A stretch of DNA of 64,000 bases, from the IMG/VR virus record IMGVR_UViG_3300048442_000818, positions 9,831-73,830 of that record. One strand, written 5' to 3'. Below, in pieces: positions 38,619 to 57,683 of the stretch. Numbering within the stretch: the first letter of the stretch is position 1; every line of letters starts with the position of its first letter. Under the pieces are notes generated by a model. That model was not told the DNA's origin, ran no database searches, and worked only from the letters and a program-made list of their open reading frames with translations. The position numbers were made by a program, and so were the translations under genes. The stretch is from a virus.

Positions 38619-40847
38619 TCAAGGTTGTATTGGTGGATTTTGCCTTGCCAATACATCTTGACCCCATGGGGACTCAGACGGATTGCCTTGGTCCTGTTCC
38701 CTTAATATATCACTAAGTTGGTTGAAACCGATAGCAGCTTCGATATCGGGATCACGTTCACCTTCTTTTCTTGCTTCAGTGAGCGCCTTAGTGACCTCAA
38801 GGTTCTGATTACCCTGAGACTGAGCTTGTTGCTTATCCATCTCACGGGCGTGTTTTGTACCTGTCTCTTGTTCAACAAAATCAAGATCAGCTTGGTCTTT
38901 CTTAGCTGCTGCTTCTGCTGCTTTGGCATTATTGAGATTAATCTCACTCTGAATCTCTTGATTCTCTAATCTCAATTTCTCAACTTCTAATTGAGCTTTC
39001 TCTTGCTCAACTGGATCAGGTGTTGGTTCCCAATTCTTCAATTGATGTGCCAAAGACGGCATACGTTTCAATGTAGCAATTTCAGACAGAATAGTCATGC
39101 TAATTTTAGGATCCATGTTTGGACCCATGGTTTGTAGCATAAAGCCTAGATCCTGCGCTTTAGCGTCATCAACCTCAGCAGTTGCAATATCTACTTCAAG
39201 ATCGAAATTGCCTTTAAGATCCTCACGATTAACCGTAACGAAATCATCATTGGTAACTCTAACAACTTCTTCTTCAGAAAGAAACTCTGAGTTCATAGCA
39301 ATGATTTTAGTGCCGATCTCAGACATCCCTTTGGCTAAACGACGGAGAATAGCCATTTCACGCTTAGAAGCTGCATCTAATACGCTACGGGTATTAGCTG
39401 CTACATCCCCGTAACTGTCACCAGAAATACCCCCACTGAACGATTTGACCCCTGTTAGAGCTTCTGCTTCTTGGTTCTGGAGATTAAGCATCAGCATGGC
39501 TGATTGGGGGATTTCAGGGTATTTATGTTCAATGATGCCCTGGTTAGTAGGCATATTGGGGTTGAATTCATAATCCTGACCGTTCTCATACCGACGACGG
39601 TTTAATGGATCCAACATGCCCTTAGCAAAGCCTTGCTGACTGTTTGCTGAACGACCCAGTAGATCGATCATACCCCGTGTTACAGCGCCTAGAATCGCTT
39701 GGTTATCCCCAAGCATCTCAGCATCAGGTTCACCGTACAGATCACGTTTGATGGGCAAATAGGGAACCAGAACAAAGGGGAGTTTATTGTCTGGGAATGG
39801 GTTTAATTCCATCCGAATAAGTGTATCCCCGATCCAGGTAGCAACAAACGGAACTAACTCACCATCATCCTCAAGATCATAGAAACCCCAGTATTCGTAA
39901 GCGACTACTTTTTTACGCATCGCATCACTGAAGTTATATTCTTGGGGTGTGGTGGTTTCGTGGTCCGGTTGAGAAAGAGGAGTACTACCTTCCCAGTTAA
40001 CTCGATCTAAATTTTTATACCGTTTACCTTCTTTTTTTAACTCTGCTTGATTTGTTTCAAATGAAACAATAACAAATAGGGCTTTATCTAAATCACCATT
40101 ACAAGAGGGATCAATAACCACATTGGCTGGATTCATGATCTCAACAGTAGGACGATTTTCAATAACCTTTTCAGATTCAATCTCTTCTTCACCCACCTGA
40201 ACAGCAACAGTAATTAGTTCCTGTTCTTCATAAAGTTCAACAGCCGCTTTTAGTGCAGGGCTAACCTGTTCGTTGAACATTCGTGGATTTTCAAGTTTAG
40301 TTTCCAATGCTTGCTGGAAAATCTGAAGATCTTGCTCATCAGTAATTTCATAATGTTCCCATACAGGAACAGTAGAATTTACAGTTTTAGTGACACGTTT
40401 CCAACCTAGACGAGCAACACACGTACCTTCATCAACTGTTGAACGCACGTAATCATCAATTAATTTAACTCTGTTTAGTTTAGTACGGAATTGCCAATTA
40501 AGTACTAATTCATTCTGTCTTGCACTATCTGTATCTTCCCAAGTAACGGGGTCAACTTTGAACAATCTATCTGAACTAAGAAATGGCTCAGATAAAGCAG
40601 AGTATCGCCACTCAGCTTGGCGACGAACAAGCTTGGGTTGAACACTAGAACGTCCTTTTACTTTAGGGGGACGTGCTTTACCCCGGATCTTAAGTAGATC
40701 AGTCCATTCTTCGATACGCTGTAACTGAGCATCATGAGAAGGTTTGGCTTGTTCCAAATCTTGCTTAAGAGTCAGCAATGTAGGTTCGTTCTTCCAATTC
40801 GTCATTTTTTTAGCGAACGGAGTACGGGGTAATTGACTATTGTCCAT
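38619..40847 (-). CDS. Portal protein (N4 gp59-like)
   Basis: [35 protein letters not shown]. Confidence 0.92.
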
Positions 40848-50125: not shown

Positions 50126-50155
50126 CGCTCAGACCACCCAAGGGTGGTCTTCGCG
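50126..50155 (-). promoter_or_regulatory. Hairpin with tandem GA mismatch and CTTG loop
   Basis: Minus strand CGC-GA-AGACCACC-CTTG-GGTGGTCT-GA-GCG. Confidence 0.6.
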
Positions 50156-50164
50156 TTTTTGTCA

Positions 50165-50941
50165 TTATACTCTACTTAACCTGATACTCAGAATAGTACA
50201 GTATTGAACCATTGTGCCAAGCTGATCTTTCAACAGTTTTTGGTCTTCTTCAGGTAGCTTATTAATAGTGTCACCTACCAAAAAAGCCTCTAATTTACCG
50301 ATCTTCTGATTAAGCTCAGCGTATTCTTTACGCAAACGATCTGCATAAGTGGCCCCGGTACTGTCAAAAGCCTCATAGCTTTGCTCAAAGACATCTTGGG
50401 GGGACCAGCTCACGTAACCGCCAAACCCATCTACGTTCTTGGCTCCACCATCGGCGTACATCACCAAATAACCAGGATCATCCCCATTTTCATCAGAAGG
50501 CAGTTCCCAACTACGGAGATCGTTATACGTCTGACGACTCATCGGTACCGCATAAACTACCTTAGTACCGATATAGGTCTTTGGATCCCCAAACTTAAAC
50601 AGGAGGTCATCCATGCTTAGTGGGGTAGACTGTTCTACCAGACTGGCTTTGTTCCGAAGGGCATACCCTTCCAATCCCCAGATCTTTTCACGGGCATTCT
50701 TACGAGCCACGTCCCGGCCCACATCTGCATCAAAATTGGCAGGGCTGGCACAGGCACTCTCACCCGTCACGGTGTACCCATTCTTCAAGGTAAGCAGACA
50801 GATCGTCTGACAGGTACCAGGGAAGACGTAGTAATCCTCAGTTACAATCTGATCATCCACGTCGCTAGGCTTGATCCGAGGAGCAGTAAGACCCTTGCTC
50901 TGGATCATCTCTTCAATCGTATTTTCCTGTTCAGTACTCAT
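50165..50941 (-). CDS. Three-domain protein: N4 gp49/Sf6 gp66 domain + YIGTK/SWSP domain + crAss001_48-like helical domain; candidate anti-defence sponge
   Basis: APRI...TIC-LTL-NG-TV-GESAC-SP-NFD--G---A---A--KIW-LEGY; YIGTK...GYLV-Y...SWSP--VFE; R---E--EL--K--KL--F...Q---M--Y--IL--R; ATG 50941 with SD GAGAGG. Confidence 0.75.
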   Translation of the reverse strand: MSTEQENTIEEMIQSKGLTAPRIKPSDVDDQIVTEDYYVFPGTCQTICLLTLKNGYTVTGESACASPANFDADVGRDVARKNAREKIWGLEGYALRNKASLVEQSTPLSMDDLLFKFGDPKTYIGTKVVYAVPMSRQTYNDLRSWELPSDENGDDPGYLVMYADGGAKNVDGFGGYVSWSPQDVFEQSYEAFDSTGATYADRLRKEYAELNQKIGKLEAFLVGDTINKLPEEDQKLLKDQLGTMVQYCTILSIRLSRV

Positions 50942-51110
50942 GGTGTAACCTCTCTGTTGTGTTGTCGTCGAATGACACGTAGACTTTAGACCACATTTAG
51001 CCACCAAACAATACTTCACCACTAGGGTAAGAGGTAGACGGAGCCTATTGTCTTGTGCCAAGACCATCAGGAGTGTTGGCTATCTACTAATAACAAACAA
51101 CACCTAAGAC

Positions 51111-51139
51111 TTGAACCAAGGGAAAAACGGGGCTAATCT
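51111..51139 (+). promoter_or_regulatory. Sigma70-like promoter
   Basis: TTGAAC-N17-TAATCT. Confidence 0.4.
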
Positions 51140-51145
51140 CGTATG

Positions 51146-51285
51146 TGTTAGGCGTGAGAAGCGGCAACAGGCCCCAGCAAAGAGGTGGGCTGAATAACCC
51201 TTTGCAGGTAGAGCTGCCCTGCTAGCACAGCACCTCCAGGCAGTGATCTACTACTAAGCCCTCTACCCAAATAGAGGGCTTTTTT
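51146..51285 (+). ncRNA. Candidate ~140-nt structured small RNA
   Basis: GC-rich stretch with no convincing ORF between a sigma70-like promoter and a terminator; internal stems. Confidence 0.35.
51256..51285 (+). terminator. Rho-independent terminator
   Basis: AAGCCCTCTA-CCCAAA-TAGAGGGCTT plus T-tract. Confidence 0.8.
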
Positions 51286-51305
51286 ATGCCCCATATAAAG
51301 TAGGT

Positions 51306-51398
51306 ACTCAGAATTCCCCTTCACGAATAAATCTCCTCCTCGCAGGGACTAGCGTCCCTGCTCAGTCGTCGCTTTATTTGCTCAGGGGAATTCTTCGC
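51306..51398 (-). other. Long strand-asymmetric hairpin with multiple tandem GA/GA mismatches
   Basis: Nested arms AGAATTCCCCT/AGGGGAATTCT, AATAAA/TTTATT, GCAGGGAC/GTCCCTGC separated by TC/TC (GA/GA on minus strand). Confidence 0.7.
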
Positions 51399-51467
51399 GT
51401 TTTGATAAAAAAGAGTTGTAATGTGTGATTCTTGATGTAAGATGGAATCTCTAACCAACTAGGAGAT

Positions 51468-51809
51468 ATGAAAATGTTTACTCCCGCTTTCGAGAATGAT
51501 GACGTGCTAGCTGCTCACACTACCTCCAAAAGAGGCCGTAAGCCTAGTGAATTGTTCGTACAACTTCGTGATATGCCTGTATCAGACACTTGGTATGAAG
51601 TAGATGGTGAAGTATATCCTGATGCACAGAAATTCCGTGCTAAGGTATATCGCTATGCCAAAAACGGTGCCGGCAAATTCAAAGTCCGTGCTACTCCAGA
51701 AGGTACTTTCATTAAGAAAGTTTCTGGTCCGGGTTCTAATCAGGAAGTTGCACAAGCTACTCCCGACACTGAATCTGAAGATCAACATGATGGTCAAGCA
51801 GATGAATGA
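51468..51809 (+). CDS. Small basic protein, possibly DNA-binding
   Basis: SD AGGAG; RGRKP AT-hook-like motif; upstream TTGTAA-N16-TAAGAT; own terminator. Confidence 0.7.
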   Translation: MKMFTPAFENDDVLAAHTTSKRGRKPSELFVQLRDMPVSDTWYEVDGEVYPDAQKFRAKVYRYAKNGAGKFKVRATPEGTFIKKVSGPGSNQEVAQATPDTESEDQHDGQADE

Positions 51810-51827
51810 TCTATAAAACAGATCATG

Positions 51828-51859
51828 AAAAAAGCCCCTTAATTGGGGCTTTTTTTTTT
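51828..51859. terminator. Bidirectional terminator
   Basis: AAAAAAGCCCC-TTAATT-GGGGCTTTTTTTTTT. Confidence 0.85.
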
Positions 51860-51864
51860 GTCTA

Positions 51865-51943
51865 TACTTCAAACTTACCTCGTGATAGTAGGTACCTCCA
51901 AAATATATTGAGTAGTACTTCAAATTTATATCGTGATATTTGG
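51865..51943 (+). repeat. Imperfect 28-bp direct repeats near the presumed genome end
   Basis: TACTTCAAACTTACCTCGTGATAGTAGG (51865) vs TACTTCAAATTTATATCGTGATATTTGG (51916), 23/28 identical, degenerate copy between. Confidence 0.65.
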
Positions 51944-52072
51944 AGCAATTCAGATTTTTTTATAGTTATGTACGGTTGTAGTGTTTCACACTATTCACAC
52001 CCATCACACTAAAGTACCCCCCCGGTGTACGTATATATCTCACACTGGTCCTACCCTACCCCATGTGAGCTT

Positions 52073-52091
52073 GCGGCTGCGCCGCTTCTGG
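52073..52091 (+). promoter_or_regulatory. vRNAP early hairpin promoter, predicted +1 at G52090
   Basis: GCGGC-TGC-GCCGC-TTCT-GG: 5-bp stem, template C(GCA)G triloop, loop centre 11 nt upstream of GG as in N4 promoters; precedes first early gene. Confidence 0.8.
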
Positions 52092-52178
52092 TGATTCATT
52101 GTGTACGTGTGTGTGGTTTCTTTGGTTCCAGTAACTGAGAACCATACTACTAACTTAACTCTAGGAGAAACTCATATC

Positions 52179-52517
52179 ATGGCTAACTCACGCATGACCA
52201 TCAGTGCTGTATTGGGCATGGTTCAGTCCACTGCTCAGACCATTACCAACTCACTCAACGCTGTCAACGACGGTGTGGAGATGATCAACAATGCAGTGTC
52301 TGATGCTGCTGAACGTCAACAGATCCGCTCTGATAACGACATGGCAATGTACGAATCAGTGTATGTTGCTGAGAAAGCTCTTGAGCTTGACCAGAGTCGT
52401 GATCACATTCGTTCTTACATCTCTCAGTCTGAACAGCACAAAAGTGGTTACGAATCAGCTTTAACCGAACTTCAACAAGCTGTAGCCCAACGCAAATCCA
52501 AGCGTGGTAATAAGTAA
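52179..52517 (+). CDS. Early protein, N4 gp1-like
   Basis: First ORF after hairpin promoter; SD AGGAG; helical. Confidence 0.6.
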   Translation: MANSRMTISAVLGMVQSTAQTITNSLNAVNDGVEMINNAVSDAAERQQIRSDNDMAMYESVYVAEKALELDQSRDHIRSYISQSEQHKSGYESALTELQQAVAQRKSKRGNK

Positions 52518-54070: not shown

Positions 54071-54613
54071 ATGTCCAAGACGCTTATCTATGCGGGCATC
54101 GGTAGCCGCCAAACACCAGAGCCTGTGCTGGCCTCCATGTATTCGATAGCACAACAATTGTCTGACTTCTGGATGCTGAGATCAGGTCACGCTGATGGTG
54201 CTGATATGGCCTTTGAAAAGGGTTGTATTAGCAAAGCTGGAGCCATGGAAATCATGGTGCCGTGGCTTGGCTTCAATAAAGCACCAACAAACGATGCACG
54301 TTATATACGTCCCAAAGCTACTGACATATTGGCTAAGTTTGCTGGTCAATTTCACCCTAACTGGGCTAACTGCAAAGATACCGTGAAATTGATGCATATG
54401 TGTAATTGCTGTCAGATTCTCGGTGAATACGGTGATGCACCGGTCGATATGGTGATTTGTTGGACACCTGGAGGCAAAGGCGGTGGTGGCACTGGTCAAG
54501 CTATTCGTGTAGCTCACCATTTCGATATACCGGTCTTTGATCTTGGTAGTAAACGTACCGCAGAAGACCTGTGTACTTTTGTGTCACTCGTCGAGCATCA
54601 ATCTGCCGATTGA
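54071..54613 (+). CDS. SLOG-superfamily (DprA/Smf/YspA-like) nucleotide-binding protein
   Basis: YAGIGSR-TP, LRSG-A-GAD-AFE, GGTGQA-R-A, IPVF-L. Confidence 0.8.
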   Translation: MSKTLIYAGIGSRQTPEPVLASMYSIAQQLSDFWMLRSGHADGADMAFEKGCISKAGAMEIMVPWLGFNKAPTNDARYIRPKATDILAKFAGQFHPNWANCKDTVKLMHMCNCCQILGEYGDAPVDMVICWTPGGKGGGGTGQAIRVAHHFDIPVFDLGSKRTAEDLCTFVSLVEHQSAD

Positions 54614-54650
54614 TCCTCTCCTCGCGTTAATTTGTTGGGTTTGTTTTGTT

Positions 54651-55436: not shown

Positions 55437-55615
55437 TGGAAACATTCTATGCATTTAAAAACAGTAGTGGTGTAACCACTCGTATGCAGTTTTCATCTGT
55501 TCGTCTAGCATCAAAATGGCTAGAAGATATGAAAAAACATAATCCGACTTATGCCAGTAAACTCACGTTAGTAAAAGTGACTGTAACCAGGGTAGAGGAA
55601 GAAATTGATGTCTGA
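55436..55615 (+). CDS. Hypothetical protein (59 aa; not in ORF track)
   Basis: TAATG coupling, SD GGAG; METFYAFK...EIDV*. Confidence 0.55.
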   Translation: METFYAFKNSSGVTTRMQFSSVRLASKWLEDMKKHNPTYASKLTLVKVTVTRVEEEIDV

Positions 55616-56423
55616 TTCTAAAACTGCTCATCAGATTAAGCTTGAACGTCTATACAACAAGAATCAGTTGATTCCTCGTGTACGACGTGAATTTACTGAA
55701 TGTGAGGAGTTTAGTTTTACGTCATACATTGTGAGTAAACAAATACCAGTCAATTTTGGACTGGATTTACTTGTCCAAATGGCTCTTCATAAAAGAGCCA
55801 ACCTGGACACACTGGTAGGCTGTCTACGACATCACTTTCATGATAGCCAGCTCACTGCGGATATGATCCTTAAGTGTGCTGAGGCTGACTTGATAGACTT
55901 CTCACAGAACTTACGTATGTTCATTGTGAAGTTTACTATCAGCCAAGATGTTCAAGAAGAACTGGATCGTTATCAATTTCCACTGCCTATGGTAGTACCA
56001 CCCAAAAAGCTCAAGAGTAACCGTGATATTGGTTATCTTATGAGTAGTGGGTCAGTAATACTCAGGAATAATCATCATAATGATGATGTCTGTTTAGATC
56101 ACCTAAACAGAGTTAATAAAATAAAGCTTACAGTTAATCTAGATACAGTCACAATGGTTAAGAATAAGTGGCGTAATTTAGATAAACCAAAACAAGGTGA
56201 AACTCAAGATGATTTCATCCGTCGTAAGAAAGCATTTGAGAAGTATGATCGTAGTGCTCGTGATGTAATCAATCTTCTGATCCAAGAGGGTAATGAGTTT
56301 TACCTTACCCACAAATACGATAAACGTGGTCGAACCTATTGCATGGGTTACCACTGTTCATACCAAGCAGCACCTTGGAATAAAGCTGTTTTAGAATTCT
56401 CAGAGAAAGAAATAATTCAGTAA
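55608..56423 (+). CDS. RNA polymerase II subunit 1 (N4 gp15-like)
   Basis: LPMVVPP, DKRGR-Y (DxxGR motif of T7-like RNAP N-half). Confidence 0.9.
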   Translation: MSDSKTAHQIKLERLYNKNQLIPRVRREFTECEEFSFTSYIVSKQIPVNFGLDLLVQMALHKRANLDTLVGCLRHHFHDSQLTADMILKCAEADLIDFSQNLRMFIVKFTISQDVQEELDRYQFPLPMVVPPKKLKSNRDIGYLMSSGSVILRNNHHNDDVCLDHLNRVNKIKLTVNLDTVTMVKNKWRNLDKPKQGETQDDFIRRKKAFEKYDRSARDVINLLIQEGNEFYLTHKYDKRGRTYCMGYHCSYQAAPWNKAVLEFSEKEIIQ

Positions 56424-56480: not shown

Positions 56481-57683
56481 ATGCAACGATTCACGCCTAA
56501 GCAGTATCTTATGATTGATATCGCCAATTCATTTGGCTTAGACAATAAGAATTGGGATGTACGTCTTGATTGGTTTAAGCAACATGAAGATCATCTTATT
56601 GAAATGCTTCCTCAAGCAAAAGAACCTGCACTTTTCTATGCTGGTATTCAAGCATGGGAAAATGTGAAAGCAACTAAACCTATTGGGTATCCTATATCTC
56701 TTGATGCAACAGCCAGTGGTTTACAATTGCTTGCTGCTCTTACAGGTGATCGTAATGCAGCAAGACTGTGTAATGTCGTAGATACAGGTAACAGGGAAGA
56801 TGCCTATACCAATGTCTATATGACAATGGTCAATAAAATCAACGAAGCAGCTAAGATAAAACGGGATGACACCAAGCAAGCTATTATGACTGCACTGTAT
56901 GGCTCACAAGCTGTACCTCGTGAAGTCTTTGGTGAAGGACCACTGCTTAAGGTGTTCTTTGACACCATGCAAGAAGTGGCACCTGCTGCTTGGGAATTGA
57001 ATGAAGCATTCCTGGATATCTGGGATCCTGATGCTCTGTCCCACGATTGGATTCTTCCTGATAATTTCCATGTTCATATTAAGGTAATGCGTACTGTTAA
57101 AGAGACAGTCCATTTCCTGAATGAACCAGTGGAAACAAGTCATAAGGTAAATGCTCCTATCGAAGAAGGACGTTCATTAGGTGCAAATACTATTCATTCA
57201 TTGGATGGTTTAATTGTTCGTGAAATGAGTCGTCGTTGTGATTATGACCCTGAGCAAATAAAGAATATAATCAAAACTTTCAATAAGCCTAAAAATAATT
57301 ACCCACTAGAAGATAATAAAACTAATCGTATGCTGCATACTCTTTGGAATCATTACAAAGAAAGTGGTTATTTATCTGCTAGAATTCTCGACTATATCAC
57401 TGAAGATAATATTAATAGCATTGATAAGACTGTTATCAGTGATCTTATTGATACCCTCCCAGAAAAACCTTTTAAAATCTTATCAGTACATGACTGTTTC
57501 CGTGTGTTGCCTAATTACGGCAATGATCTGCGCTATCAGTATAATCTTCAGCTTATGTTGATTGCTAAATCCAATATGCTTCAGTATTTGCTGAGTCAGA
57601 TTCTCAATAGACCCGTTACCATCGGTAAACTGGATCCCACACTGCATGAGGATATCCTGGACGCAAACTACTCATTGAGTTAA
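56481..57683 (+). CDS. RNA polymerase II subunit 2 (N4 gp16-like)
   Basis: Motif A DATASGLQ, motif B R---K---MT--YG, motif C HDCF. Confidence 0.92.
   Translation: MQRFTPKQYLMIDIANSFGLDNKNWDVRLDWFKQHEDHLIEMLPQAKEPALFYAGIQAWENVKATKPIGYPISLDATASGLQLLAALTGDRNAARLCNVVDTGNREDAYTNVYMTMVNKINEAAKIKRDDTKQAIMTALYGSQAVPREVFGEGPLLKVFFDTMQEVAPAAWELNEAFLDIWDPDALSHDWILPDNFHVHIKVMRTVKETVHFLNEPVETSHKVNAPIEEGRSLGANTIHSLDGLIVREMSRRCDYDPEQIKNIIKTFNKPKNNYPLEDNKTNRMLHTLWNHYKESGYLSARILDYITEDNINSIDKTVISDLIDTLPEKPFKILSVHDCFRVLPNYGNDLRYQYNLQLMLIAKSNMLQYLLSQILNRPVTIGKLDPTLHEDILDANYSLS

Follow-up and report, generated by a model that had tools for sequence, protein, structure and literature searches.

The strongest hairpin in the 64,000-nt window that we analyzed (bases 9831-73830 of a 73,830-bp virus record) is an imperfect palindrome of 93 bases at 51306-51398, whose structure is conserved by compensatory change in two metagenomic relatives (L056 and L019) and whose mismatches are mostly G.A oppositions on one and the same strand. 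The hairpin is real. Most likely it is a strand-specific DNA signal, and our tentative proposal, held at somewhat less than even confidence, is that it acts by analogy to the N4 promoters, folding on the template strand, being recognized by a phage RNA polymerase (RNAP) or a primase, and directing it toward the concatemer junction. A preliminary description of this DNA had transcribed the 93 bases exactly and had suggested that selection maintains a structure folding on one strand only, near a presumed genome end, by the logic of the N4 hairpin promoters, an interpretation that our results support in part. The genome is that of an uncultured, marine, N4-like (Schitoviridae) phage of 73.8 kb from seawater-type samples. 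It encodes a 3945-aa ORF of vRNAP size, a split N4-type RNAPII (55605-56423 and 56481-57683), rIIB and a Dda-like helicase, with TerL and a TerS-like protein encoded on the minus strand and adjoining the hairpin region.

The palindrome can be extended by sequence reading to 51303-51401, and folding combined with mismatch analysis points to its purine-rich minus strand as the one that would fold. On that strand the hairpin is closed at its base by a C-G pair (51307/51397) and a tandem GA, the latter being a TC/TC step on the plus strand that separates the basal pair from the outer stem of 11 bp (51310-51320/51384-51394, here and below in plus-strand coordinates). A further tandem GA and a short mixed step lead to the middle stem of 6 bp plus one G.T (51326-51331/51373-51378), above which a C-G pair with a tandem GA is repeated three times as a ladder containing one bulged T. 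The apical stem of 8 bp (51342-51349/51354-51361) carries the loop GCTA (tagc on the plus strand, 51350-51353). Folding energies are -19.7 (plus) and -21.6 (minus) kcal/mol as DNA (z -5.7 and -5.4) and -37.1 (plus) and -47.7 (minus) kcal/mol as RNA (z -6.3 and -7.1), which amounts to a nearest-neighbour strand asymmetry of 1.9 (DNA) and 10.6 (RNA) kcal/mol; none of 200 shuffled sequences folded as well. In a gapped hairpin scan of the 64 kb, needed because the bulge makes an ungapped finder overlook the hairpin, it ranked first with a score of 19 versus 16 for the runner-up, and of 28 versus 19 when T.C oppositions were left unpenalized.

Fourteen mismatches interrupt the window hairpin, and on the minus strand ten of them are purine-purine, every one a G.A (10 T.C among 14 on the plus strand; binomial p ~5e-5, with 0.2 expected under uniformity). 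They are arranged as tandem 5'-GA-3'/3'-AG-5' steps, four in number or five when the lone T is treated as a bulge, and no step runs in the reverse order; this bears out the earlier count of up to five TC/TC oppositions that are GA/GA on the minus strand. The same bias runs through the window, L056 and L019 hairpins taken together. On the strand equivalent to the window minus strand, 34 of 41 mismatches are purine-purine, 29 of these 34 are G.A, and the tandem steps occur 11 times in the 5'-GA-3'/3'-AG-5' order and once reversed (binomial p 2e-8, 2e-5 and 3e-3, respectively), as compared by hand and by our own dynamic-programming alignment, which has a slight bias toward G.A but leaves little freedom since most loops are symmetric. 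All three hairpins are closed at the base by a tandem GA and then a C-G pair, giving CTC-hairpin-TCGCG on the plus strand. Sheared G.A pairs are known to be stable, and the mismatches are accordingly expected to favour folding of the purine-rich DNA strand. Folding on one strand only, as suggested in the preliminary description, does not agree with the computed energies and is an expectation rather than a demonstration, because nearest-neighbour models fold both strands. That the plus strand is also predicted by these models to fold well is an observation that speaks against a strand-specific DNA signal.

The relatives were surveyed through 43 loci recovered with the TerS-like protein and 80 recovered from metagenomes with a 258-aa protein encoded beside the hairpin, and among these loci only L056 and L019 carry a long hairpin at the syntenic place. 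The L056 hairpin (2722-2827, on the opposite strand of its locus) shares its outer stem and flanks with the window (CTCAGAATTCCCCT ... AGGGGAATTCTTCGCG), with the outer 14-16 nt of both arms identical and a different interior; its DNA energy is -26.7 kcal/mol for the GA strand and -23.8 for the TC strand (z -6.7 and -5.8). The L019 hairpin (2541-2634) has helices of 10, 6 and 8 bp that all differ in sequence from those of the window, and its GA and TC strands fold with -17.9 versus -16.4 kcal/mol as DNA and -36.5 versus -30.8 as RNA. The three-helix plan is nevertheless common to the three, and it is again the same strand that carries the tandem GA steps, 3-4 of them, in L056 and L019. The homologous loci thus keep GA/GA in the context of different helices, which is the opposite of what would have told against the earlier interpretation. 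A MAFFT/RNAalifold alignment of the three hairpins was discarded as meaningless since L019 shares no sequence. The divergence of L019 also bears on the possibility that the palindrome is a duplex operator for a dimeric regulator in a divergent control region. Its position between divergent transcription units and the arms shared by the window and L056 would suit an operator, but the L019 arms keep complementarity with no sequence in common with the window, 93 bp far exceeds the length of an operator, and a strand-asymmetric mismatch chemistry is irrelevant in duplex DNA. We consider an operator most improbable and rejected it on these three grounds.

The element is uncommon and confined to a small clade. 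No further long hairpin of this type was found on either strand in 723 kb of relatives' loci, and N4, L068, L058 and about 120 loci of other relatives lack it. A blastn search of the intergenic region with the hairpin against the relatives' loci returned no sequence-level homologs except a 76-nt block in L019, a blastn comparison of the region with 50,697 phage records gave only chance 46-nt matches to the terminator, and a pattern scan with the outer stem found nothing in viral contigs; in genome contigs it picked up three bacterial palindromes, all unrelated. In L014 there is just a mini version, GC-tgc-GC flanked by a 3x3 loop that reads on the other strand as T.G plus a tandem GA. Contigs of four sequencing runs were compared over 50700-52500. 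Strain X5 is identical over the hairpin, and strain X3, from a run that seems culture-like, differs at 51307 (C>T) and at loop base 51352. The first X3 change leaves a T.G pair on the plus strand and an A.C on the minus strand, and as such it keeps the plus-strand pair at the cost of the minus-strand one, an observation unfavourable to a DNA signal on the minus strand. The second turns the minus-strand loop GCTA into GTTA, an accepted mini-hairpin loop (PMC13037366); that just one middle loop base of the apex changed, and to this loop, is an observation favourable to such a signal. In strain X2, whose flanks are 95-99% identical, the contigs continue into unlike sequence across 51211-51436, and the hairpin may be missing or exchanged there. 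Rarity among relatives and the unlike sequence in a near-identical strain sit poorly with the DNA-signal reading; the element is perhaps dispensable, and this, together with its restriction to one clade, tempers its importance.

The hairpin sits in a 525-nt divergent gap, the counterpart of the gp69|gp70 gap in N4, between rightward genes and a leftward late operon that consists, in order, of the 258-aa gene (50165-50941), the TerS-like gene and TerL. Upstream of the hairpin the plus strand has a non-coding stretch (51005-51285), a candidate small RNA with a conserved 5' motif, ACAATA..AAGA.AG..GAGCCTATTG, which is common to the window, N4, L019 and L014; a pattern scan with this motif found only the contig of L019 and one chance coding match. 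A strong intrinsic terminator (51256-51285) ends the stretch 20 nt before the hairpin. The hairpin itself could be read as a back-up terminator on the plus strand behind that of the small RNA, given that its extended plus-strand stem is followed by CG and TTTT, with the T run two bases after the stem, and that a short related hairpin at 50126-50161 (described below) directly precedes TTTTT and has been called terminator-like. But no T run comes after the hairpins of L056 and L019, the strong terminator already lies just upstream, and the consistent T.C oppositions would be left unexplained. This reading is highly improbable and was rejected because the T run is not conserved in the orthologs. 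Scans for tRNA and tmRNA found none, and P0002 gave no matches by tblastn in phages or by scans.

The N4 record opens with TGGTGG, CACACC-type repeats, a poly-C run, promoter P1 and gp1. Its bases 1-125 align with 51968-52100 of the window, and likewise with the equivalent parts of L056, L014, L019 and L068, and its final bases align with 51935-51975. Because both ends of the N4 record align there, homology places the concatemer junction, and with it the probable physical left end, at about 51972 (+/- 10), in agreement with the earlier impression that the hairpin lies near a genome end. The putative left end (51972-52072, plus strand) contains CACACC repeats and a poly-C run aligning with N4 bases 1-90, and is followed by a predicted canonical N4-type early (vRNAP) promoter at 52073-52091 (plus strand; GCGGC-tgc-GCCGC, then ttctGG). 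This promoter, the only one of its kind in the window, stands upstream of the gp1 homologue (~52180-52517); long-stem hairpins of the class able to mark middle promoters were not found in the window. On the other side, the AT-rich pre-junction region (51858-51972, plus strand) contains a 28-nt direct repeat (51865-51892 and 51916-51943) and is homologous, over window positions 51858-51975, to the ~175 nt beyond the L056 and L019 hairpins as well as to the end of the N4 record. Ancestrally, then, the hairpin would have lain ~175 nt upstream of the junction. In the window phage the distance to the putative junction is 575-665 nt, longer because a gene cassette has been inserted (51399-51857, plus strand). 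The cassette, which L056 and L019 lack, stands between the hairpin and the pre-junction region and contains a weak sigma70-like promoter (TTGTAA-16-TAAGAT), a 113-aa ORF (51468-51809) and a terminator (51827-51856). The 113-aa protein has homologues, and there are relatives of 65-72% identity.

This position allows the palindrome to be an element of the junction or of packaging that works independently of any polymerase, snapping back or extruding near the right end and being used by terminase, a nuclease or the replisome for duplication of the terminal repeat or for the start of packaging. Consistent with it are the fixed spacing of ~175 nt from the putative junction in L056 and L019, beside the conserved AT-rich repeats, and the adjoining TerS-like and TerL genes. 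The identity of the outer arms in the window and L056, with different interiors, and the recurrence of the basal frame at 50126 suggest a protein that reads the base of the hairpin. T7 offers a precedent in a hairpin form of its DNA, seen in infection and containing the terminal repeat, for which such a role has been proposed; it is on record in work cited in PMC4281155. Yet the candidate hairpins that we folded from the T7 right end have no GA/TC asymmetry, N4 and most relatives lack the element even though they face the same end-duplication problem, and in the window a 460-nt gene cassette intervenes between hairpin and junction. With the physical termini placed by homology only, we regard this role as improbable.

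The base of the hairpin has a second copy in the window. The 12-mer TCTTCGCGTTTT occurs exactly twice, each time at the 3' base of a hairpin with CTCAGA opposite it on the 5' side, so that the long hairpin and a short one at 50126-50161 (minus strand) share an 18-nt frame (CTCAGA ... TCTTCGCGTTTT, plus strand). The short hairpin has an unrelated 8-bp stem and one basal tandem GA on the minus strand, is followed on the plus strand by T5, and lies between the TerS-like gene and the 258-aa gene, both late, with its GA strand being the sense strand of the late mRNA. Frame hairpins (ggggCTC-stem-TCGCG) occupy this intergenic position in L014 and L018 too, and in L014 a C-tgc-G hairpin comes directly after. 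The base frame thus appears, from its sequence recurrence, to be under sequence-specific selection in this sublineage. Since the frames at 50126-50161 and 51303-51403 bracket the 258-aa gene, the two hairpins might be boundaries of a swappable module made up of this gene and the small-RNA region, comparable to T4-type PeSL cassettes or folded attC sites. The content between the TerS-like gene and the junction is indeed highly variable among relatives, and strain X2 differs across 51211-51436. However, the X2 breakpoints do not lie at the frames, the genome has just two frame copies, no recombinase was found nearby, and the three-helix plan is conserved at a single site in very divergent relatives; a function in recombination is therefore very improbable.

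The strongest rival to a DNA signal is an RNA stem-loop. According to it, the long hairpin is the 5'-terminal stem-loop of the leftward late (terminase) mRNA and the short copy an intercistronic stem-loop, both supposed to stabilize or process the message or to bind a protein, with tandem G.A serving as an RNA motif. The minus-strand RNA fold is the most stable one (-47.7 versus -37.1 kcal/mol, and in L019 -36.5 versus -30.8), and weak -10-like hexamers stand 6 nt before the minus-strand base in the window (TATCAA, 51407-51402) and in L019 (TAATTT). The short copy, just past the stop of the 258-aa gene between minus-strand late genes and conserved in L014 and L018, fits an RNA as well, and its position inside the late operon with the GA strand in mRNA sense is an observation against the DNA reading. 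On the other hand, L056 has no -10-like hexamer at the equivalent place, and a transcript starting there would carry a leader of 170-455 nt antisense to the candidate small RNA. The apex GCGCAGC of the relatives is special as DNA and far less stable as RNA (PMC13037366), and it is also the heptamer found in the DNA promoters of these phages. No Rfam family matches, either at gathering score over the window (Rfam 15) or at E<=1 over 50900-52200, where only terminator-like chance matches appeared and none on the hairpin. We judge the RNA reading unlikely, though it is to be taken seriously; if it is right, the element is an ordinary message-stabilizing stem-loop with an unusual mismatch chemistry.

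The tip of the hairpin is what connects it to the promoters of these phages. When the relatives were scanned for hairpins closed by C-G with T..C loops, the early promoters were recovered; their non-template strand has xxGC-tNc-GCxx and then ttNtGG, the G being 11-12 nt away from the loop centre. N4 P1 (~94) and P2 (~563) have the same grammar, and the published N4 promoter rules agree (GC-G(N)A-GC heptamer, -10G, -8G and a purine at -11; PMC4496689). In L056 and L019 the 8-bp apical stem ends in GC-tgc-GC, that is, GCGCAGC on the GA strand, which is the early-promoter heptamer class of related phages and of N4 P1 and P2; the chance of this heptamer at a triloop apex is 1/256 per hairpin. GCGNAGC is a mini-hairpin motif of DNA, and its RNA counterpart has a much lower melting temperature (PMC13037366). 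The centre of the heptamer is C in L056, L019 and the L014 mini version, as in the window promoter at 52077. In the window the positional equivalent of the GC-GCA-GC apex (51342-51361, minus strand) is C-GCTA-G, a G..A-closable loop of the GNNA type. Within AC-GCTA-GT the loop is of 4 nt, an A-T replaces the G-C at the second pair (the -8G equivalent), and just the inner C-G pair plus G..A are retained (ACGCTAGT), a resemblance at the level of sequence only. Tetraloop hairpins of the GCGNNAGC type occupy early-promoter positions in L056 and L052, and on this basis the G..A-closable tetraloop of the window may fall within the promoter class. The dimensions of the apex also fit the description of the middle promoters of LUZ7, whose hairpins have stems of 6 bp or more and loops of 3-4 nt (PMC9163698).

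The apex is promoter-like, yet the element as a whole is not a canonical early promoter. The ttNtGG start is absent after the apex in all three long hairpins, whereas it is present in 12 of 14 canonical promoter hairpins of the relatives, N4 and the window (the exceptions being L014 2283 and L002 1960), and the would-be -4 to +1 segment of the template is base-paired within the long hairpin. The element lies left of the putative junction, between the late operon and the right end and outside the left-end early region, where N4 vRNAP promoters are placed for mechanistic reasons (PMC4496689). A canonical N4 early promoter was accordingly rejected, as the heptamer fails in the window, the start site is missing and the location is wrong. 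Of the N4 logic invoked in the preliminary description, the N4-like genome and the GC-GCA-GC apex of the orthologs stand, and a canonical initiation region does not.

Returning to the strand-specific DNA signal, compensating helices, G.A on the same strand and a DNA-type tip together argue for selection on the folded minus-strand DNA arm. In the mechanism that we propose, the duplex would be opened by supercoil-driven cruciform extrusion, by a fork or by an ssDNA-binding protein. The purine-rich minus strand would then fold into the long hairpin, with its internal loops closed by tandem sheared G.A and its tip forming a GNA/GNNA mini-hairpin (GC-GCA-GC in the relatives), whereas the pyrimidine-rich plus-strand arm, with T.C at the same places, should be easier to melt and to coat with SSB. 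The hairpin that persists would then belong to the strand that is the template for rightward synthesis and, lying immediately ahead of the concatemer junction, could serve as the entry or recognition site for vRNAP, for RNAPII with an ssDNA-binding cofactor, or for a primase. By position it would correspond to T7 phiOR and could support priming or transcription in the direction of the junction and the end of the genome. Apart from the structure, its conservation and its position, the parts of this scheme, namely DNA folding, SSB asymmetry, the reading protein and the downstream role, are inferred. More specifically, and this we consider rather doubtful, an RNAP may read the GA-zipped hairpin of this clade in order to prime replication and/or to trigger junction processing or packaging, and not for gene expression. 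vRNAP is reportedly needed in N4 DNA replication, and the hairpin, if it does prime replication or packaging, would be a possible cis site for this requirement and a hairpin-promoter counterpart of phiOR.

The ingredients of such a hairpin, namely sheared G.A pairs, mini-hairpins and promoters that act as hairpins, are known separately. The papers that we consulted describe neither a long, GA-zipped hairpin that is present in single copy near the right end of a Schitoviridae genome and has a promoter-type tip, nor a Schitoviridae origin or pac site. Functional as DNA, the element would be a natural, tunable example of a sequence that makes one cruciform arm persist, a candidate cis site for Schitoviridae replication or packaging, and a simple test bed for work with oligonucleotides, SSB and mini-vRNAP.

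N4-type phages are the textbook case of promoters formed by extruded DNA hairpins, the known ones being of 5-7 bp and at the left end only. With N4 P1-P3, which are used by the virion RNA polymerase gp50, the element shares the phage family, a hairpin on the template strand (its GA strand is the template for rightward synthesis), the GC-GNA-GC tip with a sheared G.A (GCGCAGC in L056 and L019) and a built-in strand asymmetry. In N4 the asymmetry arises as SSB melts the arm of the non-template strand but not that of the template strand (PMC4496689), and here it would come from repeated tandem G.A pairs, extending the hairpin-promoter logic to ~93 nt. The element differs from P1-P3 in its three helices and 3-5 tandem G.A, compared to a stem of 5-7 bp, in lacking a single-stranded -4 to +1 segment and a G start, and in its position to the right of the late operon rather than in a left-end early cluster. 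It also has a pyrimidine at the centre or a 4-nt loop, and in the window it has no G-C pair equivalent to -8G, which is essential in N4 (PMC4496689). The RNAPII promoters of LUZ7 are likewise GC-rich hairpins (stem of 6 bp or more, loop of 3-4 nt); they use an ssDNA-binding cofactor, and the rightmost rightward genes of LUZ7 are transcribed in mid infection (PMC9163698). LUZ7 is a distant relative, and unlike here no long GA-zipped extension of its promoters has been described (PMC9163698). The same tip motif is found in the mini-hairpins GCGNAGC/GCGNNAGC at G4-type complementary-strand origins and RSF1010 ssiA, which are strand-specific folded ssDNA with SSB exclusion as the proposed principle (PMC13037366). 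Those hairpins belong to ssDNA replicons or plasmid origins and are read by primase, whereas the element belongs to a linear dsDNA phage.

T7 provides the closest comparison for position. Its phiOR, a promoter and secondary origin at 39229 of 39937, is a duplex promoter, and the likeness is one of position only. The T7 terminal repeat is 160 bp, and its right-end elements, like the hairpin described here, lie a few hundred bp to the left of it and are oriented toward the junction. Plasmids that carry the T7 origin plus the junction get packaged, according to work cited in PMC4281155. Both phages have T7-like single-subunit RNAPs and direct terminal repeats, those of the window phage being placed by homology only, and the element stands at the end of the unique sequence opposite to the early promoters, near the junction, where T7 keeps its replication and packaging signals.

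Beside the long hairpin (51306-51398), the plus strand of the window carries a candidate small RNA (51005-51285), in which a conserved 5' motif (ACAATA..AAGA.AG..GAGCCTATTG[T/C]C) is followed by about 200 nt of ORF-free, non-coding sequence and then by a strong intrinsic terminator. All three elements are present in two of the loci fetched from relatives, L019 (2640-2830) and L014 (2600-2860), and a further relative's locus, L058 (1330-1720), has a terminator and, in common with the window, other blocks of the non-coding stretch. In N4, the 5' motif immediately precedes gp70 (L054 3500-3545), and the gp70-gp71 gap shares the GAATAACC block with the small-RNA region of the window. A search of Rfam gave no match for the candidate. 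In sequencing run X2, from a near-identical strain, the flanks are 95-99% identical and the contigs diverge over 51211-51436, a segment spanning the 3' end of the candidate small RNA, the long hairpin and the start of the inserted 113-aa cassette.

On the plus strand at 51803-51827, a 7-bp hairpin is framed by GA/GA (GA-ATGATCT-loop-AGATCAT-GA); it overlaps the 113-aa ORF at the stop codon, lies directly before the terminator of that ORF, and may be a chance occurrence. Another 7-bp plus-strand hairpin (ATCAATC-tgcc-GATTGAT, 54597-54640) lies where the DprA/SLOG-like gene ends and is followed by CCTCTCCTCGCGTT, which resembles the TCGCGTT tail of both the long hairpin and its short copy (50126-50161). 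In L014 (3691-3717, minus strand of the locus), a frame hairpin (CTC-stem-TCGCG) in the gap between the TerS-like gene and the 259-aa gene overlaps a promoter-like hairpin, TCGCGCC-tgc-GGCGCGA, that has no canonical start; this is a second site that combines the GA frame with a GCA mini-hairpin.

We infer a physical left end at 51972-52072, where the architecture is that of the N4 record start (L055 1-90): GGT(G/T)G, repeats of the CACACC type (in the window, three copies of 17 nt at 51986-52056) and a poly-C run (52017-52025), followed by promoter P1. The same poly-C run is found in L002, L009, L019, L020, L040, L044, L056 and L068. The AT-rich stretch directly before the inferred junction contains a 28-nt direct repeat (51865-51892 and 51916-51943, 82% identical) that is a candidate site for the terminase or for replication; L056 and L019 contain a related block (TATATAGCGAT).

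Comparison of early-promoter hairpins (L056 2463, 1921 and 275; L052 2545, 1682 and 1013; window 52077; L014 2282 and 1196) separated the relatives into two loop classes, with tetraloops (template GC-GNNA-GC) in L056 and L052 versus triloops in the window, L014, L016, L002 and N4. N4 early promoters need a purine at the loop centre, whereas several of the hairpins compared, including P1 of the window, have a pyrimidine there.
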